DNA of 64,000 bases. Source: a virus. Taxonomy: Duplodnaviria; Caudoviricetes. The notes below the pieces were generated by a model. The model had not been told where the DNA came from. It did no database searches and saw only the letters and a program-made list of their open reading frames with translations. Position numbers and translations under genes: made by a program. Below, one piece after another: positions 4,319 through 20,013 of this stretch (its first letter is position 1; each line of letters opens with the position of its first letter). Location: positions 107,909 to 171,908 of the IMG/VR virus record IMGVR_UViG_3300028603_000002, one strand, 5' to 3'.

Positions 4319-4379
4319 CCTTGCAGCTAACATCCATATAAACTGTACATAAAATAGCAGAAATTAAAACAATAACATT

Positions 4380-4913
4380 ATGATAAACAATATAGTCATT
4401 AAAAATGAAACCCGTGAAATGGGGAGGAAAATAATTAAATACTTCAATGATCGAGGTATTGATACACGTATACTTAATGGCACAGCTTGCGCGGAAGAAA
4501 TGCATAACAATATATACTATGGAGTTATTGATGGTTATTTTGATAACTACACCTTAAAATATGTAGAAAGAGCAGGGGCTAAAATAATAACGCTACCTGA
4601 ATACCCAAAAGTAATGAGGGTAGCGCATGATAAATATTCTACCAGAACCCAACGTGTGGTCATAGGTACAGCAGATGCTGGCACCCATATCCAATATGTT
4701 GCATATAGAGATGCAAAAACATTAGATGATATACCATATCCCACTGAATTCAGGCTGTGGGACTATGCGGAAGATATTACAGAAACAGAACCTATCCTAA
4801 TAGGAAATAGAGAAGTAGAAGTAACTGAAGATGGAATAAAGGTAGGTTGTACACAGGTAGACAATGAAACAATAAAAAAGATATATAACTTAAAATTTAA
4901 AGATAATGAGTAG
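4380..4913 (+). CDS. hypothetical protein, N-terminal domain paralogous to 7100-7648
   Basis: Shared RGxDT...YYGVIDGxFDNYTL..VE.A.A.II.LP. Confidence 0.75.
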   Translation: MINNIVIKNETREMGRKIIKYFNDRGIDTRILNGTACAEEMHNNIYYGVIDGYFDNYTLKYVERAGAKIITLPEYPKVMRVAHDKYSTRTQRVVIGTADAGTHIQYVAYRDAKTLDDIPYPTEFRLWDYAEDITETEPILIGNREVEVTEDGIKVGCTQVDNETIKKIYNLKFKDNE

Positions 4914-5398: not shown

Positions 5399-5469
5399 TC
5401 TTAACGTGAGTATAATTTTTACTATTTCAAAACAACATTTTATTTTTTATAATATGATAATGATTTGTT

Positions 5470-5690: not shown

Positions 5691-5722
5691 ATACCCGTAG
5701 TACACAAATAAACAATGAAATA

Positions 5723-5755
5723 CTTGTATATCTCAGAAAAATTCATTATCTTTAT
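5723..5755 (+). promoter_or_regulatory. early promoter (near-identical to 17450-17481)
   Basis: TTGTATATCTCAGAAAAATTCATTATCTTTATTATG. Confidence 0.65.
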
Positions 5756-5778
5756 TATGTAAATAAAAAGTAGAAGTT

Positions 5779-6526: not shown

Positions 6527-6555
6527 TTTGCTTGATTTTTATGTGTGAATTAATG

Positions 6556-7089: not shown

Positions 7090-7099
7090 AGCGGGGTAT

Positions 7100-7648
7100 T
7101 TAGCTTTTGATTATTACCTGGTCAACGCCCAATTTCTCGGCTATTTCCTCCATTGTAAGCTCCATTATAATTTTGGGCGGAGTGTATTTGTACTCGTCGG
7201 TGTAGAATAGATCGTCAATGCTACCTTTGATGTACTTATCTGCCTTCTCGGGCGCCAAAACTGAATCCCGCGAGATTATTCCGTCCTTTTTGGCAAATAA
7301 ATATAGAAGGTGCTTGTTTTCGCTGACTGAGTCGCGACCATATAACCAACGATACCCCAACTGAATAAGCCTCACCTGAATAGCTCTTGAAAGTTCAGCG
7401 GTAGGCACATTAAACACATAGCCGCCGATTGAAGGTAATTCAATTATTTCAGCGTTGGCTTTCTCTACTTGACGCAATGTGTAATTATCGAATTCCCCGT
7501 CAATAACTCCGTAATACCTGTAGGAATCACCATCAGATTTACAAGAGGTTCCTACAAGGTGGCGTGTATCAAATCCCCGACTTTTCCAATACTCAATGAC
7601 CTTTGCCCCGTGGTCGGGCGTTAGTGCTTCAATTACTTGGTTTTTCAT
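7100..7648 (-). CDS. hypothetical protein, paralog of 4380-4913
   Basis: Shared N-domain; C-terminal ELTMEEIAEKLG motif. Confidence 0.75.
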   Translation of the reverse strand: MKNQVIEALTPDHGAKVIEYWKSRGFDTRHLVGTSCKSDGDSYRYYGVIDGEFDNYTLRQVEKANAEIIELPSIGGYVFNVPTAELSRAIQVRLIQLGYRWLYGRDSVSENKHLLYLFAKKDGIISRDSVLAPEKADKYIKGSIDDLFYTDEYKYTPPKIIMELTMEEIAEKLGVDQVIIKS

Positions 7649-8160
7649 TTTACAAAAGTTTTTGTTCGTTCTAAAATCTCATCCCCCAACATCCTGCGAA
7701 CAATATCGGCAGTTTGGCGTTGGTTGGCCGCTTTGTCTGAGGCAGTACGGTCAGCAGCAGCAGCAGCAGCAGAAGAATTACCACAAACAGCACAATAAGC
7801 AGCATCAGCAGCAGCAGAACGATAACCAACAGTAACAGCAGCAGCAGCAGCAGCACGATAAGCAGCCTGCAACTCTTCCTCCGTAAGCAATCCCTCTCCG
7901 TAGGCAATAGCCGCATCAACACCCTTTATGCTGCGCGCATCTTTCATCAAATGCCTGACCGTGTTCGCACAGTGTCCTGCGCAGCCGACTAATTTACGGC
8001 GATAAACGCCCGCTTTCTTCGCCCACCATAGCAGCCAATCGCCACGATGGCAGTCGGCTAAGGTTTGGGTAGGGGTGCGGTCGCCAAGCCAGTCAATGGC
8101 ATCTTCGCAGGCAGGACCTAAATGGCCTTCGTCTGATAGTAGAAATTCTCTGAATGTCAT
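7645..8160 (-). CDS. Imm5-like / Ala-rich helical phage protein
   Basis: ACEDAIDW...CHRGDWLLW...AAAAA...QTADIVR; GCA repeats encode poly-Ala. Confidence 0.65.
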   Translation of the reverse strand: MTFREFLLSDEGHLGPACEDAIDWLGDRTPTQTLADCHRGDWLLWWAKKAGVYRRKLVGCAGHCANTVRHLMKDARSIKGVDAAIAYGEGLLTEEELQAAYRAAAAAAVTVGYRSAAADAAYCAVCGNSSAAAAAADRTASDKAANQRQTADIVRRMLGDEILERTKTFVK

Positions 8161-8244
8161 AATATAGATTTAATTACAATGTAATTTAGCAAGAAATTCC
8201 ATTTATCACAAATTGTGGGTGCGCAATTTACTATTTAAAATGAT

Positions 8245-8282
8245 AAAAAAGAAGGTACACTACCTTTATAGTTCACCTTCTT
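8245..8282 (-). terminator. possible intrinsic terminator
   Basis: AAGAAGGT...ACCTTCTT imperfect hairpin preceded by an A-run on the plus strand. Confidence 0.4.
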
Positions 8283-8305
8283 GAAAACACGACCCGACAA
8301 AACTT

Positions 8306-8581
8306 TTACAGTCGGAATTGGCCGATGAGTTCATCAGCATGGTGACACTCAGCATGACAGTCGCAATTTCCAACACAGCTGTTTCTTGCGGATAGCCAGA
8401 GATGATTAATCAATGGCAATTGGGAAGATTTCGACAACCCTGATAACAAGTCATTCATGCTAATTACTAACCATGATTTACTATCATGAGTTTGTACATG
8501 AATTTCTTCCACTATGTCGTCATCTAACACAAACTTAATCCTGTTACCATTATCTTTACATTCATAAATTACTTGTTCCAT
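8306..8581 (-). CDS. hypothetical protein
   Basis: 91-aa ORF. Confidence 0.55.
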   Translation of the reverse strand: MEQVIYECKDNGNRIKFVLDDDIVEEIHVQTHDSKSWLVISMNDLLSGLSKSSQLPLINHLWLSARNSCVGNCDCHAECHHADELIGQFRL

Positions 8582-8610
8582 TTCTTTTTGTTACCTTAAA
8601 TTTCAAAATT

Positions 8611-8700
8611 GCCAGTAGGGTGAGGGTCGAACTCACAATATAGCTTCTGAATAAAGTGGGTTGCCAATTATTATCCTTTTCCCTAACGCTCCTAGACCAG
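8611..8700 (-). tRNA. tRNA-like remnant (T-arm only)
   Basis: Minus strand GTGAG-TTCGACC-CTCAC is a perfect T-arm; no convincing full cloverleaf. Confidence 0.25.
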
Positions 8701-8767
8701 TCTTATACTTTGTTACTTGATGCTGGTTTTAATTAAGCCTTTCTAATTAGAACCTTTTGATTATACT

Positions 8768-8800
8768 ATAAATATAAGAAAGATCTTTCAAAGTACCAAA
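8768..8800 (-). promoter_or_regulatory. early promoter
   Basis: Minus strand TTTGGTACTTTGAAAGATCTTTCTTATATTTA. Confidence 0.6.
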
Positions 8801-8842
8801 TTATTTTGAATAAACTTACGTAATCAGTTTGATGGTACAGCA

Positions 8843-8872
8843 CTGGAGCTCCTAAGTGGAGCTCCAGATTTT
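8843..8872. terminator. perfect 10-bp hairpin at the left end of the cassette array
   Basis: CTGGAGCTCC-taagt-GGAGCTCCAG. Confidence 0.55.
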
Positions 8873-9011
8873 AAAAATATATGGTATGGTGCAGAGTTGC
8901 AAACTCTGTTTTGCCAACAAAAGAACTATGGCTAACAGCACCTAACCTCAATAAATTATCACGGTATTCATCGGCTGTAAAGTTTTCAAAGTTTGTGGTT
9001 TCTATATTCAT
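8871..9011 (-). CDS. small cassette ORF (46 aa) reading through an attC left arm
   Basis: Manual translation MNIEPQTLKTF...LRLGAVSHSSF. Confidence 0.35.
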   Translation of the reverse strand: MNIETTNFENFTADEYRDNLLRLGAVSHSSFVGKTEFATLHHTIYF

Positions 9012-9035
9012 TTGTACTAATTTTAAGTTGAAGAT

Positions 9036-9057
9036 GTTAAGCTTATACGGATGTTAG
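9036..9057 (+). repeat. attI-like repeated site, copy 1 of 17
   Basis: GTTAAGCTTATACGGATGTTAG; other copies at 9600, 9959, 10228, 10476, 10826, 11481, 11789, 12083, 12356, 13130, 13390, 13733, 14208, 15611, 16326, 16666. Confidence 0.8.
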
Positions 9058-9284
9058 CAAACATTTTCCAACCCACACCGCACTTGAATATTTCCAAGTT
9101 CCAATTCTCTTTCAATATCTTCAATATCTCTCCAACAATCTACTCCAACTGTATAACTATACCATCCACAAAAATCTTCAATACTATCATCAAAATAACC
9201 TTCTGAATATATTTCATATTCAAAACCATCGACAAATTCTTCTATTGTCGGTATTCTATATCCTTTTCTTAATTCTTCTGCCAT
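9054..9284 (-). CDS. cassette gene, hypothetical
   Basis: 76 aa; stop codon lies inside the GTTAG core. Confidence 0.75.
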   Translation of the reverse strand: MAEELRKGYRIPTIEEFVDGFEYEIYSEGYFDDSIEDFCGWYSYTVGVDCWRDIEDIERELELGNIQVRCGLENVC

Positions 9285-9297
9285 CGCTAAAAACGTT

Positions 9298-9391
9298 TGC
9301 TAACAAGGTATATATGCAATACCCTATTAAGGTTTGTACTAAATTTTAAAGTTTGGTGCAAGGGTGCTGCATATATACCCAACCGTTAGCC
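9298..9391 (+). repeat. complete attC-like site
   Basis: GCTAAC...GGTATATATGCAATACCCT / AGGGTGCTGCATATATACC...AACCGTTAGC (17/19 paired). Confidence 0.8.
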
Positions 9392-9607
9392 ACCATTTGA
9401 CGACCGTTGTACTTCGACTGCAATTTCTTCAAGCAATTCAAGTATTTCATTTGCCCAAGTGTGGTCTATGTTTATTTTTGATACCTGAGTGTCAAATCCG
9501 AGCTTTTTAGCAACATCCATATCGTGTCGCATTTCGCCCTTGAATCTCCTGTATTCTTCTTTTTTCTTTGTGATGAGTTCTAATACTTTTTCCATAACCG
9601 TTATCAT
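9386..9607 (-). CDS. cassette gene, hypothetical helical protein
   Basis: 73-aa ORF. Confidence 0.65.
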   Translation of the reverse strand: MITVMEKVLELITKKKEEYRRFKGEMRHDMDVAKKLGFDTQVSKINIDHTWANEILELLEEIAVEVQRSSNGG

Positions 9608-9622
9608 TTATACAGGTGTTGA

Positions 9623-9913
9623 CTACTCACCAATATAGTGTGTTTCAAAATCATAACCATCATTTACCTTTTGAAGTTTACCTTCGTCAAGATTTATGAT
9701 TTCTCTTATATTTTTAAGTTTAGTGTCAGCAATTTCTTTTGTGTGTATTTCAATATCAATACCTCCAGAACCGTCACCATCAATTTGAATTGGCAATAAT
9801 CTGTTTGCACCAACATCACCACAATATTGTATTTTTCTGAGAGCAATCATAAAATCTTTTAAATCTTCATCAGAAATTGCTGTAATTCGCAAGTCAATAA
9901 ATTTTCGTTCCAT
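9623..9913 (-). CDS. cassette gene, hypothetical
   Basis: 96 aa with a DGDGS motif. Confidence 0.7.
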   Translation of the reverse strand: MERKFIDLRITAISDEDLKDFMIALRKIQYCGDVGANRLLPIQIDGDGSGGIDIEIHTKEIADTKLKNIREIINLDEGKLQKVNDGYDFETHYIGE

Positions 9914-9995
9914 ATTGTCGTTTTAAGTCGTTAAAATTATGTGCGCATAGCCATAACCGTTACCATTTATACGGGTATTGTAGCACATACGCTCA

Positions 9996-10199
9996 CTACT
10001 TTTTCGGTTTCAATTTACCGTCTGCACATTTAGGGCAGTATATTGTTTGATGTTTTGTAATTCTCCACCCTTTTTTACTCCACGCACTGGCAGCATCATA
10101 CGGGTCGCAATCCATTTCTCTTCCAATAGTTCTACACTTATGGCACATTATTGTGTTTTCAGTAGTACAATGTTCGTATAGTTCATGTATTTCATCCAT
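9996..10199 (-). CDS. cassette gene, Zn-ribbon protein
   Basis: CHKC...GW...CPKC. Confidence 0.7.
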   Translation of the reverse strand: MDEIHELYEHCTTENTIMCHKCRTIGREMDCDPYDAASAWSKKGWRITKHQTIYCPKCADGKLKPKK

Positions 10200-10250
10200 C
10201 TCCGTTCGTTTTAAGATGTTAGTAATAGTTTATAAGGGTATTATCGGCAA

Positions 10251-10463
10251 TTATTCCCAAGTAATTTCCACCATTTTTGCATCTTCCATCATTTTCATTA
10301 ATCCGCAAAATTCTCTCCAATGATATTCAGTTATTGTTTCACCTATACTATTACTAAGTTTATTTAAACAGTTGTATATCTCTGTATTAATATAACTACC
10401 GCTAACAACAGGTGTACTTGATGCTTGTGTTTCTGCCATTTGTAAGTTCGGTTCTTTTTTCAT
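10251..10463 (-). CDS. cassette gene reading through an attC left arm
   Basis: PVVSGS is the antisense translation of ACTACCGCTAACAAC. Confidence 0.65.
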   Translation of the reverse strand: MKKEPNLQMAETQASSTPVVSGSYINTEIYNCLNKLSNSIGETITEYHWREFCGLMKMMEDAKMVEITWE

Positions 10464-10508
10464 GTTGATTAGTTGGTTGGTTTATACGGGTGTTATAGGC
10501 AATTGCCA

Positions 10509-10757
10509 CTAAAGTATCTCTCTACATTCGGGACAATAATTTTCAGCAATTTGTTGAACCCATTTTTTATTTTTATGTTCACATCGTGGCAACTGTTCGC
10601 TTTGCCGTACAACATTGTATAAATCCAATTGCTTACGTGCTTCAATCAATTGAGCTTCCAACCAATCCTTGTAGTTGTCGAGGTCAAAGTGTATGTCTGT
10701 TTCACCAACCGTTTCAGGATGGTCAAGTCTAAATTCTTCTTCAAATGTATATCTCAT
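10509..10757 (-). CDS. cassette gene partly encoded in an attC loop, C-terminal Zn ribbon
   Basis: YNVVRQSEQL...CEH...CPEC. Confidence 0.7.
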   Translation of the reverse strand: MRYTFEEEFRLDHPETVGETDIHFDLDNYKDWLEAQLIEARKQLDLYNVVRQSEQLPRCEHKNKKWVQQIAENYCPECREIL

Positions 10758-10803
10758 AATTTCTGTTTTTTAATTCGCCCTACGCATACAATCGACCGTT
10801 AGC
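10605..10803 (+). repeat. large attC-like site containing coding sequence
   Basis: TACAAC-ATTGTAT ... ATACAAT-CGACCGTTAGC arms. Confidence 0.6.
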
Positions 10804-10855
10804 GTTCAGCCTATCGCTGCGGGTAGTTAAGTTTATACGGGTGTTAGGTGTAATG

Positions 10856-11134
10856 TCAACACCATTCTACGCTAATCACTTTTAGTTTACACCCATCAAC
10901 ATCATTTATTACATGCCCTTCCTTGGGGTGAGAGTCTGTAATTGATATTGGTTCATTTGTCGGTTCACACCCCATTTTGAACAATAGTCTTGAACCTTTA
11001 GGTAAAAATGCTTTTGAGGTCTTTGTGATGAACCAAGTTTTTAACTTTTCGTTACCCCAAGCAAATCGAACAACGCTACACCTAACATCCGCTATAGTGC
11101 ACGTATGTTCTGTTGTTTTTGTAATATTTTGCAT
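10856..11134 (-). CDS. cassette gene starting inside an attC loop
   Basis: HTCTIADVRCS is the antisense translation of the attC left arm. Confidence 0.65.
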   Translation of the reverse strand: MQNITKTTEHTCTIADVRCSVVRFAWGNEKLKTWFITKTSKAFLPKGSRLLFKMGCEPTNEPISITDSHPKEGHVINDVDGCKLKVISVEWC

Positions 11135-11199
11135 AACTCAAAGTTTATTTCTGTTTGGATGCGTTATTGAAGCCACGCACCATAGCTTTACCGTTAGGA
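11080..11199 (+). repeat. complete attC-like site
   Basis: CCTAAC..GCTATAGTGCACGT / ACGCACCATAGC..ACCGTTAGG. Confidence 0.75.
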
Positions 11200-11203
11200 G
11201 AAG

Positions 11204-11461
11204 TTAAAGAGAAAACCAATCACTTTCCTCTTGTCTACTCAGAAGCTCCTCAACAGCCTCTTTGGTAGCAGGACAAGCGGAGTAAAAACAATTCTTTGCT
11301 TTCACCTCAAGTTGCTTCAGCTTTTCAAAGTCTCCGTCCACTAATTGAAAAAGAAACAGAGTTTGCTCGTTGCTGTGATTAGTCCGATCGGTTAACCAAT
11401 TAAGTCGTTCTTTATCAAGCTCGTACTTATAGGTATCTTTGCGTCCATACTTCAATTCCAT
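11204..11461 (-). CDS. cassette gene, hypothetical
   Basis: 85-aa ORF. Confidence 0.7.
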   Translation of the reverse strand: MELKYGRKDTYKYELDKERLNWLTDRTNHSNEQTLFLFQLVDGDFEKLKQLEVKAKNCFYSACPATKEAVEELLSRQEESDWFSL

Positions 11462-11511
11462 ATTCTATTAGCTTTACGATGTTACTGTTTATACGGGTGT
11501 TAGACGCAACG

Positions 11512-11769
11512 CTAAGAAACCAACCTACCTTCGACATTTTCTTTCATTTTGATTAACTCATCCCTATAACCAGAACCACCATCTTGGTTGGAATAGGGCA
11601 TTTGCAAGTGTTCATTTATTTTTACCAACAACTTAGCTGTTTTCACTTTGTTATCCTGATGCTGGTCAATCCATTTATTGTATTTACGAATAACTTTGTT
11701 TAGTTTGGTTCTACCTTCTTTCCACCAAGATATACCTACATTTTCATCCCACTCTACTATTTTTTCCAT
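11512..11769 (-). CDS. cassette gene, hypothetical
   Basis: 85-aa ORF. Confidence 0.7.
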   Translation of the reverse strand: MEKIVEWDENVGISWWKEGRTKLNKVIRKYNKWIDQHQDNKVKTAKLLVKINEHLQMPYSNQDGGSGYRDELIKMKENVEGRLVS

Positions 11770-11817
11770 ATTCCGTTCGCTTTACGATGTTACTGTTTAT
11801 ACGGGTGTTGTGTGTAA

Positions 11818-12012
11818 TTAAAGCAAGCCATCGTTATTTTCGCCCATCATCGTATCAACGGCTTTTTCAGCATCTTTAGCCGCACTTTTAAGCAGCTTCT
11901 TTGTGTTTTCAGGTTCGTTTCCTGTGGCTACATCTACCACGTCTTTTACAATTGCAACAGGTGTAAGTGCTGTTTTTACTGCTGCTGAAATTACGTTTGT
12001 TAAGAATCCCAT
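11818..12012 (-). CDS. cassette gene, small amphipathic protein
   Basis: Likely start MGFLTNVISAAVKTALTPVAIVKDVVDV at 12012 (track ORF extends to 12174). Confidence 0.65.
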   Translation of the reverse strand: MGFLTNVISAAVKTALTPVAIVKDVVDVATGNEPENTKKLLKSAAKDAEKAVDTMMGENNDGLL

Positions 12013-12112
12013 TTGATTAAAATTAACTGCTGCCAACAATGTAGTAAGGCACAGGCAGCGTTTGTGCTTATCGCTGTGGGTGGTTGAGTTTATACGAGGG
12101 GTAGGTGTAATA

Positions 12113-12316
12113 CTAAAGATTCCTACTAACCAACCCTGTTCCATTACACCAAGTACAATCTTCTTCATTACCAAAATCGTCTATTTCAATTTTACCGCCA
12201 CCCCAACAAACAGTACATTCCAATAATTCCTTAGTGGAAGTACTGCTGCCAACAGCACCTAAATCGCTATTGGCGGTGCTGTGGTTGTTCTTACTTTCGT
12301 TCTTACTTTCGTTCAT
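12113..12316 (-). CDS. cassette gene, DnaJ-type Zn-finger (CxxCxGxG x2)
   Basis: CTVCWGGG and CTWCNGTG; LGAVGSS comes from an attC arm. Confidence 0.7.
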   Translation of the reverse strand: MNESKNESKNNHSTANSDLGAVGSSTSTKELLECTVCWGGGKIEIDDFGNEEDCTWCNGTGLVSRNL

Positions 12317-12380
12317 TACGGTTTAAGTTTTACCGAGTTTCCTAAATTGAGGGTAGTTATGTTTATACGGGTGTTGTGCT

Positions 12381-12785
12381 TCATGCAAGGAAACTCCCGT
12401 GCTTAATTATGAAGTACAGTTTATTAGGGTCTCCGCCTAAATCAGGCTTGCCCCATCCGATCTCAATTCCTTTGTGTTCCATTTTCAATATCCTTTCCTT
12501 ATCAGTTGATTTTGGATAACCCAATGTCATTGTGTTTGTAAGGAATGGCTTAAAACCAATCATACTTCTTTTCAATTTATCCCCTGCAATACTTGACAGA
12601 TAGGCGTTTATAGATTGTTTGTCCAAGTAATCCCAATCATATCCAGACGTGTACTTAAAAACCTTCTTATAGTCAAATACAAGTCTTTTAAACCAGTAAT
12701 CGTTTATGTCTCGATAATCTTCGGTTTTTACGCCCGATTTGGTCATGTCGAACCATTTTTTTTTAAGTGATAATTGCAAATTCAT
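12381..12785 (-). CDS. cassette gene, ASCH/PUA-like domain protein
   Basis: LSLKKKWFDMTKSGVKTEDYR...TLGY...GKPDLG. Confidence 0.75.
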   Translation of the reverse strand: MNLQLSLKKKWFDMTKSGVKTEDYRDINDYWFKRLVFDYKKVFKYTSGYDWDYLDKQSINAYLSSIAGDKLKRSMIGFKPFLTNTMTLGYPKSTDKERILKMEHKGIEIGWGKPDLGGDPNKLYFIIKHGSFLA

Positions 12786-12807
12786 TTTGTATCAGTTAAG
12801 CACGAAA

Positions 12808-12936
12808 GCACAACAATTGCTATAAAACATAGGGCGTTCGTGCGGTTATTAAAGTGTAGGGTTGTTTTTCAGGTGTTCGGTGTTTTCGAACAATTCGGCT
12901 ATCTATACCCTACGTTTCATGGCATAGCCGTTAGCG
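12808..12936 (+). repeat. complete attC-like site
   Basis: GCACAAC..TGCTATAAAACATAGGG / CCCTACGTTTCATGGCA..GCCGTTAGC (14/17 paired). Confidence 0.8.
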
Positions 12937-12937
12937 T

Positions 12938-13126
12938 TCATTTTGACGACGCTCTCCGTACTTCTTCATTAAGCACATCGTAATTGTCTTTAATGTACGC
13001 CTTTACATCGCCACTGCATTTGTTATTGTCATACAACCAAATCAGATAAGACGCAGGGACATTTATCATTTTATAACCTTGATATTTTCCCCAAGGCATA
13101 GGGCTTTCATCTGTTAAGTTTGCCAT
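12938..13126 (-). CDS. cassette gene, DUF3820-like
   Basis: Likely start MANLTDES at 13126; MPWGKYQG...VPASYLIWL. Confidence 0.75.
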   Translation of the reverse strand: MANLTDESPMPWGKYQGYKMINVPASYLIWLYDNNKCSGDVKAYIKDNYDVLNEEVRRASSK

Positions 13127-13163
13127 TTTGTTTAAGTTTATACTGGTGTTGTAGCACATACGA

Positions 13164-13379
13164 TCACTGCACTTTTGGTCTCCAATGTGTGATTTCGTAA
13201 TCAACATCACCATACTGTCTGTAATCGTAATGTCCAATTCCTGCCTCAATCCACCAAGTATCCCCCAAGTAGTAGCCAACAAGTATCTCATCATTATAGT
13301 CTTGCCTTAGCTCACAATCAATAGGCTCATCGTTTGCGTCTAATTCAGGCAGTCTTTCATTTACATTTATCCAATTCAT
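13164..13379 (-). CDS. cassette gene, DUF551-like
   Basis: MNWINVNERLP...ITHWRP. Confidence 0.8.
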   Translation of the reverse strand: MNWINVNERLPELDANDEPIDCELRQDYNDEILVGYYLGDTWWIEAGIGHYDYRQYGDVDYEITHWRPKVQ

Positions 13380-13417
13380 ATCAGTTCACGTTAAGTTTAT
13401 ACGGGTGTTAGCAGCAA

Positions 13418-13657
13418 TTATGCCCTTTTAGGATAGTGCTTCATACATTTGAAACAAGCCATTTCATCATATAGTGGTTTTAACTCAACATTGCAATCAG
13501 GGCATAACTGTTCGCTTTGCCCTACAACATCATGTATGTGTAAGGCTATGTTTAGTGCTTTATCAGCAAGTTTGTAAACAGTTGTAGTTCTAGCAAGCTG
13601 TTGTGTTTGCATTTGATGTTCCTTTATTTCTTCAAGTATCTTAATTATATCTTCCAT
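13418..13657 (-). CDS. cassette gene partly encoded in an attC loop, Zn ribbon
   Basis: LHIHDVVGQSEQLCPDC...CFKC. Confidence 0.7.
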   Translation of the reverse strand: MEDIIKILEEIKEHQMQTQQLARTTTVYKLADKALNIALHIHDVVGQSEQLCPDCNVELKPLYDEMACFKCMKHYPKRA

Positions 13658-13712
13658 TTCTAATAATGTTTAGTGTGAATATTCGCCCTACATATACACC
13701 CGGCCTTTAGCG
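13519..13712 (+). repeat. large attC-like site containing coding sequence
   Basis: TACAAC..TGTATGTGTAAGGC / GCCCTACATATACA..GCCTTTAGC. Confidence 0.65.
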
Positions 13713-13764
13713 TCCAGCCTATCGCTGTGGGTGATTAAGTTTATACGGGTGTTATGTGCAAGCA

Positions 13765-14154
13765 CTACTGACCTGCTTCTTTATCAAGTTTTTTATAATG
13801 TCGTATAACATACGCAAGTTTATCTCTAAAATTAACCCTTCGCAATTGTTGAATAATGTCGCTGAATTTTTGTGCTTCATTATCAGGTATCATCGAAATT
13901 AGTATATCATCGTGTTCGCAATGTATAGTTTCCATAAAATCATCTTGTGTCAAGCCTTCATCACAATGGTCATACATTTTTAATCTTGATGCTATTTCAG
14001 CACAATATTTGTGAGTTTTCCAGTCGTAAACTTGACCATCGTATTTGTGAGTAGATTTTATATAAGTATCACCTTTAGGTATTCTACACGCACAAAAATT
14101 ACAACTATGTTCTTTAATGGCTTTCGTTTCTTTTGGGTATGTTAATGTTTCCAT
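13765..14154 (-). CDS. cassette gene, Zn-binding hypothetical
   Basis: KAIKEHSCNFC..IPKGDTY...WKTHKYC. Confidence 0.75.
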   Translation of the reverse strand: METLTYPKETKAIKEHSCNFCACRIPKGDTYIKSTHKYDGQVYDWKTHKYCAEIASRLKMYDHCDEGLTQDDFMETIHCEHDDILISMIPDNEAQKFSDIIQQLRRVNFRDKLAYVIRHYKKLDKEAGQ

Positions 14155-14238
14155 ATTTTAATCAAATTTTAGTTGTTAATAACCCGCTACTACATATATC
14201 GGATGCGGTTAAGTTTATACGGGTGTTGTAGGCAAGCT

Positions 14239-14484
14239 CTACTTACATCTGAAGTGAGTGAGTACTGCCATCGGATGTTCATCTTCATATCTACATTCCG
14301 TACCATCATCAAACCTACACAGGCAGTTTCGTTTTGCGTACTCATTGAATATTGATTCATTACCTTCAAATTCGAGCCAGCCACTAACAGCAAATAAATC
14401 CAATATTCTGTCAGCGGTATTGGCAACGCTTTCACCTATTATACACTTGTTTAATAGGTCGATAATTTGTTCTCTTTTTTCCAT
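14239..14484 (-). CDS. cassette gene, hypothetical
   Basis: ILDLFAVSGWL reads through the attC left arm GCCAGCCACTAAC. Confidence 0.65.
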   Translation of the reverse strand: MEKREQIIDLLNKCIIGESVANTADRILDLFAVSGWLEFEGNESIFNEYAKRNCLCRFDDGTECRYEDEHPMAVLTHFRCK

Positions 14485-14503
14485 ACTGTCTTTATTATTT
14501 AAG

Positions 14504-14719
14504 TTAGTTGTAATGTCTCCATACTAAGCCACTCGCCTTTATATTTACCAGTGTAAAAGGGTATATTGCAAAAGCTCTCCAAAAGAAGGAAACTTCGGCA
14601 TCAAGTGCGCTTAGTATCCCGATAGTGGCGTACCACATAATCCATAATCCCACTATAAGCACCACCGCTAACAATCTACGAAATGCATTCCTATTGGTTT
14701 CTTTATAATTTTCATCCAT
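14504..14719 (-). CDS. small membrane protein
   Basis: Two hydrophobic segments; contains CCACCGCTAAC. Confidence 0.6.
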   Translation of the reverse strand: MDENYKETNRNAFRRLLAVVLIVGLWIMWYATIGILSALDAEVSFFWRAFAIYPFTLVNIKASGLVWRHYN

Positions 14720-14766
14720 GATTCTATGTTTTGTGTTTATTTATTAAATTCTATGGTTCAACGCAT

Positions 14767-14997
14767 CTAATACTCTTCCGTTGGCAGAAATACAAGTTGG
14801 CCGTTATCCCATCCGCTCAGGTTAATTTCAATCGGCAAAAGTGACTCCTTGCCGTCATATATGCCGTGCGTGTATTGATGCAAAAACGCTAACTGCTCAT
14901 TCTCTGTCAACTCGCGGGTAACCTTAAACGACCCAGAGCCTATCGTTTCGCCAGTGTCACGTTGGTAAACTTTGAATCTGTATGCAAATCTTTGCAT
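14767..14997 (-). CDS. hypothetical protein
   Basis: 76-aa ORF. Confidence 0.6.
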   Translation of the reverse strand: MQRFAYRFKVYQRDTGETIGSGSFKVTRELTENEQLAFLHQYTHGIYDGKESLLPIEINLSGWDNGQLVFLPTEEY

Positions 14998-15015
14998 TCT
15001 AATTTTTCTCTAATG

Positions 15016-15393
15016 TTAGGCACAAGCACTACCGACACGCTCCAAAATAGCATCTGCGTGACAAGGAGAAGAAAGCGAGCAAAAACACGCTAAATCCTTT
15101 CCTTTTAGTTCGGTAATGCTTGGCGGAGTTGGCAAATAAGGTGCAATTGCTTTTAATTCACCATCAAGCCATCGGCCGTATAAATCAACAATATCTTTTG
15201 TTTCAAATCCACCTGAATAACTCCACATTATCCAAGGGTCTAATATTTTCCGATTAGTCGAGTAGCATTGAATAAAGCCATCATGTGTTAATCGAAATGG
15301 ATTTCCCCATTTAGTAGGTCTCCCTACATACTTTGCGTTTTCGGGCATTCTCCATCCCTTTGTTCGCCTTCTTTGTATTCGTTTCATAATCAA
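15016..15393 (-). CDS. DUF4326-like protein
   Basis: YVGRPTKWGNPF...ELKGKDLACFC...CHADAILE. Confidence 0.85.
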   Translation of the reverse strand: MIMKRIQRRRTKGWRMPENAKYVGRPTKWGNPFRLTHDGFIQCYSTNRKILDPWIMWSYSGGFETKDIVDLYGRWLDGELKAIAPYLPTPPSITELKGKDLACFCSLSSPCHADAILERVGSACA

Positions 15394-15399
15394 AATTTA

Positions 15400-15600
15400 T
15401 CACTTATTTGGTAGTTCTGGCAACTCCGTCCAATGAGAAGGGAACACGCTCTCCCCATTTACTACCCATGTTTTGCCATCTTTGTGTAAATGTCCAACCC
15501 TCATTATAGAGTCTTCACCTGTTTCTTGAAGTATTAGCAACACTTCTACTTCCGTATCGGGGGTATTGTAATTTACATCAAACCAAATTGTTTCATTCAT
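15400..15600 (-). CDS. DUF551-like protein
   Basis: WFDV...P...EVLL...SHWTELPELP. Confidence 0.75.
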   Translation of the reverse strand: MNETIWFDVNYNTPDTEVEVLLILQETGEDSIMRVGHLHKDGKTWVVNGESVFPSHWTELPELPNK

Positions 15601-15638
15601 ATCTGTTCACGTTAAGTTTATATAGGTGTTAGCAAACA

Positions 15639-16028
15639 TTAGGTAAGTGATATGTAATATTTTTTCTTTTGATTTTCGACTGCATCAACAAACCAACTTG
15701 GTAAGTTGTATTCAGTACATATTTTTTCAAACTCTATTTTAGGTAAGTAGCCTTTTGCTCTATCTTCTGCATACATTTTTATATGTAGGTTTACACTACC
15801 TTTCGTCTTTAATAGAGTTTTTAACTTTTCAGGTTCACAAGTTGGTTTTATTACACCATTAGTATCATATAGGTAAAAACATTCCTTTGCGGTTTTACCG
15901 TTTTTATCAAATTGTATCAATTCAATTCCTTTTTTATTATGATAGTATTCAGTACCATCAAAAGAAAAAATATTAGATACAGATAAGTACCAATTATAGT
16001 CTCGCTCAAAGTTTTTGCTGTATTTCAT
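15639..16028 (-). CDS. cassette gene, hypothetical
   Basis: Likely start MKYSKNF at 16028; flanked by complementary cassette ends. Confidence 0.7.
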   Translation of the reverse strand: MKYSKNFERDYNWYLSVSNIFSFDGTEYYHNKKGIELIQFDKNGKTAKECFYLYDTNGVIKPTCEPEKLKTLLKTKGSVNLHIKMYAEDRAKGYLPKIEFEKICTEYNLPSWFVDAVENQKKKYYISLT

Positions 16029-16061
16029 AACGTTTGCTAACAAAGTGTATGTGTAATAAGG

Positions 16062-16277
16062 CTACTTATCTACTACCTTTTCAACTTTCAACTCATAAAG
16101 CTCACCTTTGTATTTAAACTGAACTTTTTCTTCAAGCTGTAAAAGGTGTTGAGCTACTGCGCCAACAGCCGTATCTGTTACATCATGTTTTGTTTGCCCC
16201 CAAGTTCCGTTCTTCAAAACTCTTCCAGCAAATAATCTACTCGTTAAAGGTGAGCAACCTACTTTAAAATCTGACAT
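16062..16277 (-). CDS. hypothetical phage protein
   Basis: VGCSPLTSRLFAG...KHDVTD.AV.AVAQHL, a recurrent phage family pattern. Confidence 0.75.
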   Translation of the reverse strand: MSDFKVGCSPLTSRLFAGRVLKNGTWGQTKHDVTDTAVGAVAQHLLQLEEKVQFKYKGELYELKVEKVVDK

Positions 16278-16354
16278 AATCTTTTTGTTTTAATACTGAC
16301 TACTTTACATTCCATATCAGTTTCCGTTAAGTTTATATAGATGTTGACAGCCAT

Positions 16355-16621
16355 TTATTGAAACCACTGCTTAATCTGTTCTGTTCTTTGTTCGATCATC
16401 TCATTAATCTTTGGCAGCAATGGATAATTAGTTTCGTCAATCCAAACAGTTTCAGACTTACCATCTTTGCCTAATATAACTGTCGGAGTTGCTACAGAAT
16501 AAATTTCTGTTCTTTTAGCGTGGAGTTGTTGCAACTGGTTATCGTTCAAGATCGCTTCTGAAATTAAACGGGGGCGAAGAGCGTATTTATTCAATGTGGA
16601 GTTTTTGTCGTTATTGTTCAT
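16355..16621 (-). CDS. cassette gene, hypothetical
   Basis: 88-aa ORF. Confidence 0.6.
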   Translation of the reverse strand: MNNNDKNSTLNKYALRPRLISEAILNDNQLQQLHAKRTEIYSVATPTVILGKDGKSETVWIDETNYPLLPKINEMIEQRTEQIKQWFQ

Positions 16622-16672
16622 TTCGGTATTTCGTTTTAATCTTCCGCGCTGGCATAGCGGATGACGTTAAGT

Positions 16673-16927
16673 TTATCCGGGGTTGATTGTGTCTTGAAAC
16701 TTCTTCCTCAATGCTGACATCATAGCCTCAATAGCCCTGGGCATTTTTTTCACAACTTCATCTTTTGTTCGGCCCTGAACGACAACACCCTTAAGCTCCT
16801 TAATAATTCCTATGAACAATCCGGTTTTCTCATTATGAATTATCACCCCAGTGAAATTCTTGGTTTGTGCTTGTCTTCCCATGATAAGTGCTTTTGATTG
16901 ATGTATGAAATTAATTAGCTTCCACAT
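16673..16927 (-). CDS. HicB-like antitoxin-fold protein
   Basis: ELKGVVVQGRTKDEVVKKMPRAIE; probable start at 16882. Confidence 0.6.
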   Translation of the reverse strand: MWKLINFIHQSKALIMGRQAQTKNFTGVIIHNEKTGLFIGIIKELKGVVVQGRTKDEVVKKMPRAIEAMMSALRKKFQDTINPG

Positions 16928-17219
16928 GTAGTCCGGATTTTTTGAACTTTTTTATAGCATTCCTGAGATTCAGAGCCGTAATGTAGTAGCACTCCTTCCG
17001 GAGAATTAATTTGTTCCGTTTAACGTAACTCCCAGTTAACGACTCTACCGCTATATCCACCTCCTCCAACGGAGCTTCTGTCACTACCCCATCATCCCAT
17101 TGATACACTGTATGCCCAGGCTTCAGTCGTCGTGTACCGATAAAGCGGACTTTTTTCTCCTCCGCGGGGGTAACAATTTGCTGTTCTTGTTTAATTTGAT
17201 CTGGCTTAATCTCCTTCAT
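16911..17219 (-). CDS. hypothetical phage protein
   Basis: 102-aa ORF. Confidence 0.7.
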   Translation of the reverse strand: MKEIKPDQIKQEQQIVTPAEEKKVRFIGTRRLKPGHTVYQWDDGVVTEAPLEEVDIAVESLTGSYVKRNKLILRKECYYITALNLRNAIKKFKKSGLHVEAN

Positions 17220-17291
17220 TGTTTTCCTTTTTTGTCAATGTAACGTGCAATAATTCATGTTTTCATAATTTTATCTTTTTAATTTGTACTA

Positions 17292-17323
17292 TAAAGATAT
17301 GAAAAATATTTCAAAGTACCAAC
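17292..17323 (-). promoter_or_regulatory. early promoter facing into the island and cassette array
   Basis: Minus strand TTGGTACTTTGAAATATTTTTCATATCTTTA. Confidence 0.6.
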
Positions 17324-17449
17324 TATGAAGCGAAAGATGTTTCTAAATTTGACCCGACCGCGGGAAAATTTATAATATCAGGTACAAAGATAAAATTTAT
17401 TGTGTAATTATCGAAATTTTCAATTCAAATAATTTTCCTACATGTTTAT

Positions 17450-17481
17450 TTGGATATCTCCTAAAAATTCATTATCTTTAT
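17450..17481 (+). promoter_or_regulatory. early promoter
   Basis: TTTGGATATCTCCTAAAAATTCATTATCTTTA. Confidence 0.7.
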
Positions 17482-17502
17482 TATGAAATAAAACAAGAAA
17501 CT

Positions 17503-17718
17503 ATGTATTATGTAGAAACAATGATTGATGGTATACTCCATTACAAAACAACACCGCATGGAAATTGGATACCTATTTCTATAGAAGTACTATCACAAAG
17601 GGTGGTAAAAGCGGAAAAAAGAGTATCATTACTTAAAGATCAATTGCAAGAAGCTAAAAGTATACCCAAACTAACTTCTGAAGCTCTTGGGCAATTATTC
17701 ACTGGAAAATCTAATTGA
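17503..17718 (+). CDS. hypothetical protein
   Basis: 71-aa ORF after promoter. Confidence 0.7.
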   Translation: MYYVETMIDGILHYKTTPHGNWIPISIEVLSQRVVKAEKRVSLLKDQLQEAKSIPKLTSEALGQLFTGKSN

Positions 17719-17719
17719 T

Positions 17720-19549
17720 ATGAATAAAGAAGTATCCAAATTAGTACAAGAAATTACAACTGAAAAACACGGTACTATATCTGTGGGTGGTATATTATAT
17801 CGTCGTGAGGACGTATATAAGATTGTTAAAATTGAAGAAACTGAGTGGGGTCCTGTATGTTATTGTATCGATCCTGATGGTGATGAACATAAAGTGTCTC
17901 GCAGTAGTTTACAAGACTATTATCAATACTATGAAGGTGATTTCGATGATCTGGTTAAGAAAGCAATAGCATTGAAACGAGGAGAATTTGATCTAAGTGA
18001 ATACCAGGAACAGTCTAATTCCGAATCAACTCAACTGATGAAGATAGATAAGAAATCATATGAAGTCTTATTATCTGATGTTAAGCGTAGAAGACATGAG
18101 CTTTCTATAATTCAAGCTCATTATCTCAGTATATTAGAAAGAGAAAAACGTAATTTAAGATCTATTATAGATACGTTTAACAAGAAGATTAATAAGTTAC
18201 GGGAGATTATATGGACTATTGAATTATATCTTGGTATAGAGGAGGATATAGTGCGCATTCAACAAGGAGCACCAGCATCAGACGAGGAACCTATACATTT
18301 ATTACAAGCTAGGCTATACATGGATGAAGAAGTTGGAGATCCAAGTGACGGTGGTCTTGATTTCAAAAATATTGAAGATTTCGATAATTGGATGCTTAGT
18401 AAAAGCAAATTTTATGGATTTGAAAATTACAAATTGATAGTACCATTTCCGAAATGTGTACGTATAATGCGAGTAAGGCGGGATCAAAAGGAATACCATG
18501 ATAATCCATGGGTTAACTTCGAAATGAATATCCCGAACATGGAGACGTATATCATTATACGCAACGGTGAGAATATTTACACCATATCTACAACTATGAG
18601 ATTCGATGAAAAGTTATTTCCTGATTCTGATGAATTAGTGAAAATGTACGAGGAGATGGATAAAGATATCAATAATCCAAATATAATCAGTCGCAGCTAT
18701 GATCCCGAAGAAAGGCATAAAAATAAAATTGATGAATTCATGCATACATACCGTAGAAATATGGTCGTAATGCAAGGTTTGCTTGATCGTACCGAGGTTT
18801 TTGGTAATATGTCGGGTAAAGTATCCTTTATGAATGAAAAGTCTGCAGAAGAAGGCAAAATAGTGTTCTTCTACGAGAATCAAGGCAACCAAATTGAAGA
18901 TGGATCTGTCGATCCATTAAAATGGTTTGAAATCGCCAGTAGTAATCCAGTAGAAGGTCAACGAGTATTAGTCATTACTGAATCGGATTGGAAAACTTCA
19001 GAAGAACGTAATTATCGAATATATAACAGATATTTTTCAAATAAATGGGCATATCCAGATGCCATCCGAAACGGTATATATACCTTACATATAGATAAGG
19101 AACATAGAGAATATGGTGAAAATAAAACTGTACTATATGTTAAATATTTGCCGAATGATGAAGTTTACACTGAGTATGGTAGCAAAGAAAGAACCAGAAG
19201 ATTTAGGTGGCGTCTGCATCCTAAAGAGTGTATTAATTTCGATCTTATATCACATAGAAATATCCAATGGGTAGATAATATGCTACATGATAGGAGAGTT
19301 AGAAAACATTATTCGAGATACATGAATACATTAATTGCTCTGAAGAAATACAAAGATAAAGAGTTAGAAGAAGAGTTACCATTCTGTCAACTCATACAAA
19401 GTTACTATCCAAAATTGGATATTGATGAAATCAGAGATTATGTATTTTGGTGGAAAACTAAGAATAAATGGAAGAGATCATTGACAGTAGATGATCAGAA
19501 AGCGATTCGAATGATTAGAAAGAAAATTGAATCAACCTATAAAACATAA
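17720..19549 (+). CDS. large hypothetical phage protein with coiled coil
   Basis: About 610 aa; likely start ATG 17720 (track start 17687). Confidence 0.85.
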   Translation: MNKEVSKLVQEITTEKHGTISVGGILYRREDVYKIVKIEETEWGPVCYCIDPDGDEHKVSRSSLQDYYQYYEGDFDDLVKKAIALKRGEFDLSEYQEQSNSESTQLMKIDKKSYEVLLSDVKRRRHELSIIQAHYLSILEREKRNLRSIIDTFNKKINKLREIIWTIELYLGIEEDIVRIQQGAPASDEEPIHLLQARLYMDEEVGDPSDGGLDFKNIEDFDNWMLSKSKFYGFENYKLIVPFPKCVRIMRVRRDQKEYHDNPWVNFEMNIPNMETYIIIRNGENIYTISTTMRFDEKLFPDSDELVKMYEEMDKDINNPNIISRSYDPEERHKNKIDEFMHTYRRNMVVMQGLLDRTEVFGNMSGKVSFMNEKSAEEGKIVFFYENQGNQIEDGSVDPLKWFEIASSNPVEGQRVLVITESDWKTSEERNYRIYNRYFSNKWAYPDAIRNGIYTLHIDKEHREYGENKTVLYVKYLPNDEVYTEYGSKERTRRFRWRLHPKECINFDLISHRNIQWVDNMLHDRRVRKHYSRYMNTLIALKKYKDKELEEELPFCQLIQSYYPKLDIDEIRDYVFWWKTKNKWKRSLTVDDQKAIRMIRKKIESTYKT

Positions 19550-19553
19550 TAAC

Positions 19554-19931: not shown

Positions 19932-20013
19932 AACCACGTTTCACCACATTTTCACTGAAAATCTATGACCCCCCCCTATTTCACTGATTTTTGGTAAAAA
20001 ATACCCCAAAATC

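Follow-up and report, generated by a model that had tools for sequence, protein, structure and literature searches.

A probable orphan array of integron-like gene cassettes in a T4-type phage

A 64,000-nucleotide stretch of a Caudoviricetes genome (IMG/VR record IMGVR_UViG_3300028603_000002, positions 107,909 to 171,908; hereafter the window) carries on its minus strand a long run of small genes parted by short, repeated sites. We put the probability at roughly two in three that this region is an orphan array, that is, one without its own recombinase, of a phage-borne, integron-like cassette system widespread in phages of Bacteroidota. The evidence comes from the array itself and from related arrays in other phages, where folded sites stand upstream of a recombinase gene. 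An initial annotation of the same DNA had proposed that phage accessory genes are shuffled on a cassette platform. For the family as a whole this proposal stands, with arrays that end at a recombinase gene and most resolvable breakpoints at TAAC; the system is not a true integron. Positions below are those of the window unless they are given as genome positions.

The array and its cargo

The array, its head and its end comprise the following features.

8871..17219, minus strand: array of small open reading frames (ORFs; cassette cargo), 27 ORFs of 46-134 aa
17284..17322, minus strand: promoter-like site of Bacteroidota type (TTGG..N..TATCTTTAT) at the array head, from its motif
8843..8867, minus strand: perfect 10-bp hairpin CTGGAGCTCC-ACTTA-GGAGCTCCAG at the array end, an inverted repeat
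8761..8800, minus strand: second Bacteroidota-type promoter-like site, opening the next operon outside the array, from its motif

The count agrees with the approximately 25 small minus-strand genes described before, and the promoter then placed at about 17300 is plausible, as a Bacteroidota-type promoter-like site (about 17319) heads the array. A third such site heads a plus-strand array at genome 103950. The hairpin at 8843-8867 is likely a terminator, judging from its sequence, and occupies the array end, which in relatives is the place of the recombinase gene.

Among the cargo, clear Pfam matches were obtained for DUF7446 and DUF4326, matches just over the cut-off for DUF551 and QSregVF_b, and matches below it for UPF0150, a double zinc ribbon and Anti-TRAP/DnaJ-type zinc fingers. 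The remaining ORFs, which are the majority, match no Pfam family. The families named by the initial annotation are thus recovered unevenly: DUF4326 clearly, DUF551 barely, the zinc ribbons only below the cut-off, and ASCH, suggested for gene 12381..12785, not at all by Pfam at E up to 0.01.

A repeated simple site

In this array, co-oriented small genes are parted by sites with the box ATTGCnnnTAAC. The most frequent form is a simple, hairpin-less site with the core motif AACACCCGTATAAAC, which has 18 matches in the window at up to 3 mismatches; shuffled sequence gave 1.69 +/- 1.31, and none of 100 shuffles reached 18. Sixteen of the matches lie on the minus strand (9041-16345), one plus-strand copy lies at 4329, and a 17th minus-strand copy, with 4 mismatches, is found at 16671-16685. 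The conserved 17-copy site noticed earlier is therefore real, with 17 minus-strand copies in 9041-16685 co-oriented with the genes. In the whole genome there are 24 copies, all intergenic and all oriented as the downstream gene. They are grouped in two oppositely oriented arrays, a plus-strand one at genome 104.8-106.8 kb and a minus-strand one at 116.9-124.6 kb; a single copy stands apart at genome 112237. The individual sites are listed below, together with two minimal junctions; ^ marks the proposed exchange point.

9041..9055, minus strand: simple site (AACATCCGTATAAGC) with TTTGCT before it, motif match
9606..9620, minus strand: simple site, motif match
9965..9979, minus strand: simple site followed by GGTAACGG, motif match
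10228..10242, minus strand: simple site, motif match
10480..10494, minus strand: simple site, exact 15-mer
10831..10845, minus strand: simple site followed by the repeated leader of about 60 nt (10758-10830), exact 15-mer
11487..11501, minus strand: simple site, exact 15-mer; site and leader 93% identical to the copy at 11795
11795..11809, minus strand: simple site, exact 15-mer
12088..12102, minus strand: diverged simple site, 3 mismatches
12361..12375, minus strand: simple site, exact 15-mer
13136..13150, minus strand: simple site with ATG 9 nt on, motif match
13395..13409, minus strand: simple site, full AATTGCTGCTAAC^ACCCGTATAAAC, exact 15-mer
13739..13753, minus strand: simple site followed by the repeated leader, exact 15-mer
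14213..14227, minus strand: simple site, exact 15-mer
15616..15630, minus strand: simple site, motif match
16331..16345, minus strand: simple site, motif match
16671..16685, minus strand: diverged simple site, 4 mismatches
4329..4343, plus strand: isolated simple site upstream of gene 4380..4913, motif match
genome 104794-106845, plus strand: six further simple sites just ahead of the window, motif match
15015..15018, minus strand: minimal junction, TAAC box (GTGCTTGTGCCTAAC^ATTAG) overlapping the stop codon of the DUF4326 gene, from sequence
14503..14506, minus strand: minimal junction, TAAC box (ACAACTAAC^TTAAAT), from sequence

The consensus of the 24 copies is aTTGCnnnT-AACACCCGTATAAAC-TTAAC, and the site in the window reads AATTGCnnnTAAC^ACCCGTATAAAC. 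Its 5' half is the family box, which agrees with the upstream consensus of 222 hairpin sites from other phages ('..aATTgc..aTAACGg'; see below). It is this box that carries meaning, the 'GTT-cored junctions' of the initial annotation being trivial as such. The CCGTTAG element reported with them (CTAACGG in gene sense) is real and oriented: 12 of the 35 genome copies of TAACGG lie within the two arrays, all 12 in sense and none in antisense.

Simple sites sit 8-90 nt ahead of start codons, contain TATAAA and are missing between tightly coupled genes. Their TTGC-TATAAA spacing is only 10 nt and fits neither sigma-70 nor Bacteroidota promoter geometry, and they make up a third promoter-like class, confined to the two arrays, beside the Bacteroidota-type sites and a motif of the structural genes. 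The near-identity of 24 sites in a genome without recombinase suggests a role in expression too, and here the simple site is probably also the promoter and leader of each cassette. A T4 late promoter was considered for the site and dropped: TATAAATA has no strand bias, and the site is absent from structural regions. Searches outside this genome returned little. The exact 15-mer gave 51 single matches in IMG/VR, which is chance level, none with a recombinase and only one (L012) with the TTGC box upstream; a 20-mer had no match in metagenome contigs.

Some of the leaders are themselves repeated. After the simple site, a leader of about 60 nt (TTAACTACCCRCAGCGATAGGCTG..CGCTAACGG..GTAGGGCGAAT) is found at 10758-10830, 13658-13738, 12013-12087 and genome 105110-105170, ahead of four genes. 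In two of the copies, a possible outer stem has a compensatory change (CCCACA/TGTAGGG vs CCCGCA/TGCGTAGGG). At least two of the four genes may be related, as 25 nt are 96% identical at 10591-10615 and 13506-13530, within two otherwise diverged zinc-ribbon genes (10509..10757 and 13418..13657). Joints in contigs of other metagenome runs also stop at these shared 25 nt (13505). A search of positions 1-20000 against Rfam gave no match at E up to 1.

Folded sites and their family in other phages

The array also holds folded sites, and these link it to other phages. An 18-mer of the hairpin arm, GGTATATATGCAATACCC, occurs exactly in 25 IMG/VR contigs. An alignment (A1) of 19 copies, 18 of them from other phages, extends over about 115 nt, with flanking genes that vary by copy. 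Its layout is ATTGCnn(A/C)TAACGG, TT, a 19-bp arm, a 37-nt loop, the second arm, TTGTTAGCAAACG, about 10 nt and ATG. A covariance model (R1) was built from A1 and applied here with the following results.

9285..9400, minus strand: canonical hairpin site; fold z -4.26; R1 135.8 bits, E 1.4e-29
12786..12937, minus strand: degenerate hairpin-type junction that opens with CTAACGG and closes with GTTG (not GTTA), with an imperfect stem (about 14 bp) and a loop of some 70 nt between them; fold z -2.09; no R1 match at E up to 1
11135..11203, minus strand: junction with CTAACGG and no significant hairpin; fold z -0.48
16028..16061, minus strand: remnant of a hairpin site, right arm only (..ACACTTTGTTAGCAAACGTT ATG), a direct and inverted repeat

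The canonical site has TAAC at 9388-9385, 19-bp arms at 9379-9361 and 9325-9307, a 35-nt loop and GTTAGC at 9304-9299, and a leader joins it to the ATG of gene 9054..9284. It thus shows every part of the folded layout, from TAAC and a 5-nt spacer through the stem of about 20 bp with its loop to the 1-2 nt ahead of GTTA. Most junctions here lack this fold. Three complete hairpins had been proposed at first. The one at 9298-9391 is strong and that at 12808-12936 modest; the third, at 11080-11199, folds no better than shuffled sequence and extends into an ORF. The stretches folded for the second and third were 12790-12939 and 11135-11210. R1 also has a weak match at 16014-16134 (18.4 bits, E 0.55), and a second clear hairpin lies in the plus-strand array just ahead of the window (genome 105787-105960, E 6e-7).

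In the other phages, R1 finds many more copies at the same loci, with stems quite different in sequence and an equal layout, in gene-hairpin-gene-hairpin arrays of 5-7 hairpins per locus (for example, 6 in 2.6 kb in L090 and 7 in 3.3 kb in L089). Homologues of gene 13765..14154 are found on two hairpin-bearing contigs (L074, L078). The pattern used to scan for such sites by structure had TAAC and GTTA at its ends, each set off by a short spacer from one of two arms with 14 or more paired positions, around a loop of 15-130 nt. Among 222 distinct sites, TAAC is followed by a 5-nt spacer in 179, and GTTA is preceded by one of 1-2 nt in 199; stems are of 17-22 bp (mode 20), and loop lengths fall into two clusters, 30-39 and 60-79 nt. 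Each of the four Watson-Crick pair types is seen at almost all of the first 14 stem positions, and on the sense strand G.T pairs outnumber A.C mismatches by 393 to 26. Given the enrichment of these elements upstream of a recombinase gene (see below), their fixed geometry and the excess of G.T, these sequences indicate selection for the fold on the gene-sense strand, whether in single-stranded DNA or in RNA.

Two other identities were considered for the hairpin and dropped. An inverton (invertible promoter) was set aside because the 30-80 bp between the arms were judged too short for duplex pairing and 19 of 19 canonical loops have the same orientation. A mobile element like a miniature inverted-repeat transposable element (MITE) was set aside because all copies keep a fixed distance to ATG and overlap the upstream stop region.

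Further observations concern the hairpins themselves. An inverted repeat of 16-20 nt (TGTTAGCAAACGTT ... AATGTTTGCTAACA) brackets genes 9054..9284 (9052-9067/9290-9305) and 15639..16028 (15627-15646/16023-16042); it consists of the hairpin right arm upstream and the box of the next site downstream. In a wastewater run (X6), window positions 9296-9354 reach a summed depth above 12,000 over at least 24 contigs with differing flanks, so that phages with the canonical hairpin are very abundant there or the element is very numerous. In long-loop hairpins (L112:1501-1674, which is genome 105787-105960, and L090:792-958), an ORF begins in the loop after the leader AACTTTAA(A/G)ATTAG... This ORF reads through the right arm and the GTTAG box, and thus a site and the 5' end of a gene can overlap.

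A recombinase at the end of the relatives' arrays

A protein with the tyrosine recombinase domain PF00589 is encoded in 8 of 20 hairpin-bearing records, and in 7 of the 8 its gene lies on the same strand, 0.25-1.7 kb downstream of the last hairpin. These recombinases are 264-277 aa long and share 34-71% identity. Their best models are XerA, IntI and XerC/D, every one below its curated cut-off. In particular, TIGR02249, the IntI subfamily, scores 147-157 bits, where its cut-off is 265, and aligns with them in only two stretches. With such scores, the relatives' enzyme of about 265 aa belongs to the Xer/IntI clade and is not IntI. An IntI-type enzyme, as brought up in the initial annotation, is accordingly not supported: the relatives' enzyme scores below the cut-off and is absent from this genome.

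A search with the recombinase alignment found relatives in 241 IMG/VR contigs, of which 80 loci were fetched and scanned. Sense-strand elements number 266 upstream and 6 downstream of the recombinase (8.18 vs 0.14 per 10 kb, a 58-fold difference), and antisense elements number 11 in total, 8 of them outside the gene. Of the 59 loci in which 1.5 kb or more of DNA lies upstream, 56 have at least one element, and a single array has up to 13. As a control, 447 kb of unrelated viral loci contained 4 elements. The recombinase gene therefore forms the 3' end of the array and points in the same direction as the cassette genes. In one relative (L115:2680-3333), a gene between the last hairpin and the recombinase matches ART-PolyVal (ADP-ribosyltransferase), and in another a DNA methylase follows the recombinase.

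Gain, loss and exchange of cassettes

The point of exchange can be read most directly from near-identical relatives. Two contigs from different metagenomes (L129 and L130) differ in three events and are otherwise 99-100% identical; every one of the six junctions of these events lies at TAACG(G). One is a 383-nt unit present in one contig only, whose junctions share just TAACGG; another is the swap of three units for one, with TAACG at both boundaries. In the third, two extra units are inserted at ..TTTCTAACG^TGGGGTTAG.., 59 nt ahead of the recombinase ATG. Further comparisons (L155/L157 and L182/L183/L200) add junctions at TAAC^ and contain a unit that neighbours the recombinase gene in one pair of contigs and has an internal position in another contig. 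They also have one breakpoint at GTTA^, and another three ends lie 34-159 nt away from the closest TAAC box. The expected gain and loss exactly at a G^TT core is hence upheld in part: in near-identical relatives most resolvable breakpoints lie at the TAAC box (CCGTTAG on the plus strand), and some lie elsewhere. The reuse of a 5-6-nt core, together with insertion beside the recombinase gene, argues for a site-specific system and not for homologous recombination.

Recombinases of this family are also encoded by cultured phages of Polaribacter and Cellulophaga, where they are annotated as integrase. The Polaribacter phages Freya_1, Freya_6 and Freya_10 have a recombinase at 38% identity and are identical to one another from the integrase onward; upstream of it they have 0.9-4.1 kb of differing DNA. 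The boundaries are AATTGTTGCTAAC^ACCCCTATAAC and CAATTGTTACCAAC^(T/G)T(A/T)CA(T/C)GTATAA, for which the close counterpart in the window is the full site at 13395..13409 listed above. L130 likewise has a hairpin-less site, TAACGGTTGAGTATAAAT. Together, the Freya and L130 sites indicate that hairpin-less sites are used in arrays that bear the enzyme. In the Freya records (L202-L204, for Freya_10, Freya_1 and Freya_6), the integrase starts between record positions 83 and 4180, and the deposited genomes begin exactly at AACACCCC, the exchange point.

For the array itself, megablast of 8800-17400 against cultured phages gave no match, and a neighbouring gene of 620 aa has relatives that are only 33-42% identical, with no array alongside. 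Contigs of four other runs (landfill, sludge, bovine and wastewater) were compared with window 4000-20000, and these carry single array genes in other orders. The joints found include those below.

9064 joined to 13147
13418 joined to 15396
13418 joined to 14209
10845 joined to 15020 (run X4: 15020 to the site at 10845)
13379 joined to 11467
14227 joined to 9966

Among 24 listed joint ends, approximately 20 lie within 8 nt of an intergenic stretch (about 23% expected) and 12 within 10 nt of a site (about 10% expected). These contigs show modularity, and the exchange point is not fixed by them. Phage contigs that are otherwise unrelated also have individual genes of the array, at 72-88% amino-acid identity, and one such homologue, of DUF551 on L064, is flanked on either side by decayed remnants of a site. 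In run X6, a contig of 480 nt (depth about 950) matches the 3' part of gene 14239..14484 over 175 nt (14231-14405), with only 2 differences. It diverges at 14231, 4 nt off the site at 14213-14227, and past the stop codon continues with CTAACGGCTAC.., a hairpin-type start.

The phage genome and its probable host

The record from which the window is taken is a complete virus genome of 171,908 bp, with direct terminal repeats and a CheckV estimate of 100%. T4-type Pfam matches in the genome include the gp20 portal, the gp23 capsid protein, a T4-type terminase, the tail sheath and a family B DNA polymerase; a RecA/UvsX-like protein and an SbcC-like gp46 nuclease are also encoded. By this gene content, the phage is a T4-type myovirus of about 172 kb, and the label 'jumbo phage' given to it before does not fit a T4-type genome of 171.9 kb.

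Bacteroidota promoters are of the type -33 TTTG / -7 TAnnTTTG. Approximately 19 promoter-like sites of the form TTTGG-N19-TTATCTTTAT(TATG) occur genome-wide, of which those in the window lie at 8761-8800, 17284-17322, 17449-17481, 1376, 2038, 3264, 3660, 20014, 22402 and 56165. Shine-Dalgarno motifs are scarce (23 of 205 genes). Promoter-like sites of the -33/-7 type and scarce Shine-Dalgarno motifs together indicate a Bacteroidota host. Another motif, ATATTTATTA, lies ahead of many genes of the structural region, including the tail sheath gene, and may be a late promoter. A scan for sigma-70 promoters gave no enrichment (33 found vs 37.7 expected), a terminator scan likewise gave none, and no match to Sigma70_r2 was found.

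Beyond the array, window 5996-8160 holds four tandem minus-strand genes of 171-182 aa without a Pfam match, in DNA of raised G+C (0.44 vs about 0.32). One of the four shares 52-56% identity with the plus-strand gene 4380..4913 in a stretch of about 70 aa.

Proposed mechanism and alternative explanations

In the mechanism that we propose, a unit would consist of 1-5 small early or accessory genes and close with the box ATTGCnnnTAAC, and strand exchange would take place directly after TAAC. In relatives, the next unit usually opens with a site that folds on the gene-sense strand. Such a site has a 5-nt bulge, a stem of about 20 bp whose sequence varies between sites, a 30-80-nt loop, the return strand of the stem, 1-2 nt and GTTA. 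A Xer/IntI-clade recombinase of about 265 aa is encoded in these relatives at the 3' end of the array, behind the last simple site, where new cassettes can enter. In the present phage, 24 units open with the hairpin-less TAAC^ACCCGTATAAAC(TTAAC), of the same type as the sites upstream of the Freya integrases, and two units in the genome keep a clear hairpin (window 9285-9400 and genome 105787-105960). We infer that exchange is carried out by the relatives' recombinase on folded single-stranded DNA, and that the array was built in this way and is now frozen or served by a co-infecting phage. Its own recombinase is best read as lost or never present. A bolder version, which we offer tentatively and would not ourselves favour, is that the 24 hairpin-less sites are live. 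A recombinase-less T4-type phage would then trade cassettes with co-infecting, enzyme-bearing phages, so that widely differing Bacteroidota phages would draw on one open pool of early or anti-defence genes. In contrast to those of integrons, each cassette would bring its own promoter within the recombination site.

Several observations weigh against an orphan cassette array. No PF00589 tyrosine recombinase, serine recombinase or Y1 transposase was found in the complete genome, and tblastn found no remnant of the family recombinase there, which extends to the whole genome the earlier remark that the window holds no integrase. With no recombinase encoded, the activity of the sites in this phage is unproven. 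The exact 15-mer is absent from the 80 recombinase loci, where up to 3 mismatches gave chance-level matches only. Junctions with the simple site alone have a fold z of -0.6 to +0.3 in three of four cases (-1.45 at 16622-16690), and those with the simple site and the repeated leader (n=3) range from -0.02 to -1.8. The near-identity of 24 linear sites without an encoded enzyme suits expression at least as well as recombination. Only two array proteins, both from the plus-strand array and both weak, have homologues inside the 80-locus arrays, and the minus-strand array has none; the link between hairpin and recombinase could partly be conserved gene order in one phage lineage. The structural scan picks paired stems, and pair diversity is not by itself independent proof of covariation; the sense-strand G.T bias is equally expected of an RNA hairpin. 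Finally, the joints in the four runs come from short contigs at 85% likeness around a multi-copy site, and some are possibly alignment artefacts.

A first alternative is that the sites are purely regulatory. The 29-nt site would then be a phage-specific middle-mode promoter and the hairpins terminators or insulators similar to the PeSL/PmSL elements of T4-type phages, with shuffling by homologous recombination through UvsX and gp46/47. The phage is of the T4 type and encodes both a RecA/UvsX-like protein and an SbcC-like gp46, and no recombinase. The site lies close ahead of starts, oriented as the gene and with its TATAAA, is missing between tightly coupled genes and is a promoter-like class of the arrays only; conservation of the canonical hairpin module reaches the ATG of unrelated genes downstream. 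Moreover, PeSL insertions and deletions at composite promoter/stem-loop motifs follow the same pattern (PMC2839356, PMC4122927). Such an explanation is the chief rival for this phage and fails on the data from relatives: junctions there share only TAACG(G), and 5-6 nt are too little for repeated homologous recombination, and regulation alone leaves unexplained why hairpins are 58-fold enriched ahead of one recombinase family. In addition, the simple site lacks sigma-70 or Bacteroidota geometry, with 10 nt between TTGC and TATAAA, and loops of 30-80 nt are unlike those of terminators. Overall, we regard a purely regulatory role as unlikely.

A second alternative, quite improbable in our view, has the hairpins act as RNA only, in RNase III-type processing or stabilising between early cistrons, with adjacency to the recombinase as inherited gene order. 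In its favour are the sense-only orientation of the elements and the preponderance of G.T over A.C on that strand, and stems of 17-22 bp suit double-strand-specific RNases. Yet it leaves unexplained the conserved TAAC and GTTA boxes, the breakpoints at TAAC and the insertion at a simple site adjacent to the recombinase, and the 24 simple sites here do not fold. We give next to no credence to a true integron array of attC sites served by a host IntI, despite the AAC/GTT cores, the one attC-sized imperfect palindrome and the array of small co-oriented ORFs. No IntI is encoded in the genome, the relatives' enzymes of about 265 aa reach some 150 of the 265 bits in a two-stretch match, and most junctions have no palindrome. 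The genes also point the opposite way relative to the site, and the relatives' recombinase stands at the far end of the array.

Comparison with known systems

The closest parallels are with integrons, particularly sedentary chromosomal ones. Both systems have small co-oriented genes between sites that are fixed only in an AAC/GTT box, and imperfect palindromes with an asymmetric bulge and a variable stem and loop between the boxes. Both also have a Xer/IntI-clade tyrosine recombinase beside the array (here in the relatives), insertion at a simple site next to the recombinase gene, and whole cassettes gained, lost and re-ordered at one short core. On the other hand, the enzyme of the phage system, at about 265 aa, does not reach the IntI cut-off, and its gene lies at the 3' end of the array in the orientation of the cassettes. 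Exchange takes place at the 5' box (TAAC^) of the gene-sense strand, so that the hairpin precedes the gene, and the folding strand is the gene-sense one according to the G.T bias. The hosts of the system are phages, and many of its sites, here nearly all, are hairpin-less and probably promoter-bearing.

The hallmark of an integron is IntI, with its IntI-specific extra domain, next to the array, and an attI site and cassette promoter beside a divergent intI at the head. Here no IntI lies next to the array. In place of an attC palindrome per cassette there are one strong and one weak hairpin, although the relatives' arrays do have this architecture. The head carries a Bacteroidota-type promoter-like site and no recombinase gene, with no attI or promoter beside a divergent intI. 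By this analogy, the system would work like an integron and is not one. Clusters of attC sites without an integron integrase (CALINs) are similar in being arrays of cassette sites with no matching recombinase in the genome. The present array differs from them in that its sites are mostly simple ones and not attC hairpins, and in that it resides in a complete, lytic-type T4-like phage and not in a bacterial chromosome.

Among phages, the nearest comparison is with PeSL/PmSL elements, which are modules of stem-loop and promoter in hyperplastic small-ORF regions of T4-type phages (Arbiol et al. 2010, PMC2839356; Comeau et al. 2014, PMC4122927). A PeSL combines sigma-70-like -35 and -10 boxes (-35, N17, -10) or a MotA box with a Shine-Dalgarno site, a short stem-loop and ATG (PMC2839356, PMC4122927). 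The array likewise lies in a hyperplastic small-ORF region of a T4-type phage and has intergenic modules of stem-loop, promoter-like site and next gene start, at which relatives show indels and replacements. The make-up of the module is different, with TTGC and TATAAA 10 nt apart, no sigma-70 enrichment and Shine-Dalgarno motifs at only 23 of 205 genes, and so are the 20-bp stems, the long loops, the 5-6-nt overlap at junctions and the recombinase at the end of the relatives' arrays. We know of no dedicated recombinase for PeSLs.

Xer-dependent modules offer a further parallel. These include the pdif modules of Acinetobacter plasmids and the folded attP of CTX-type phages, which use host XerC/XerD and 28-bp dif-like sites or a single integration site. 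There, too, a Xer-type recombinase acts on short sites that bound gene modules, or on folded single-stranded phage DNA. The system described here differs in that the enzyme is encoded by the phage and the sites are reiterated in long arrays. Full-text literature searches found no paper on a phage-borne system of this kind.

Integrons are known as a bacterial device for gene capture and shuffling, defined by IntI and its special domain. If arrays of folded sites with a simpler, Xer-like enzyme do exist in phages, gene capture would have arisen or spread beyond IntI, and phages would own a platform for exchanging small early genes, a class that includes host-takeover and anti-defence functions. 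The window would add that the system reaches T4-type phages, that a hairpin-less site can dominate an array and that arrays persist without the enzyme. Cultured Polaribacter and Cellulophaga phages with a recombinase and defined sites make recombination of folded DNA without the IntI domain directly testable.

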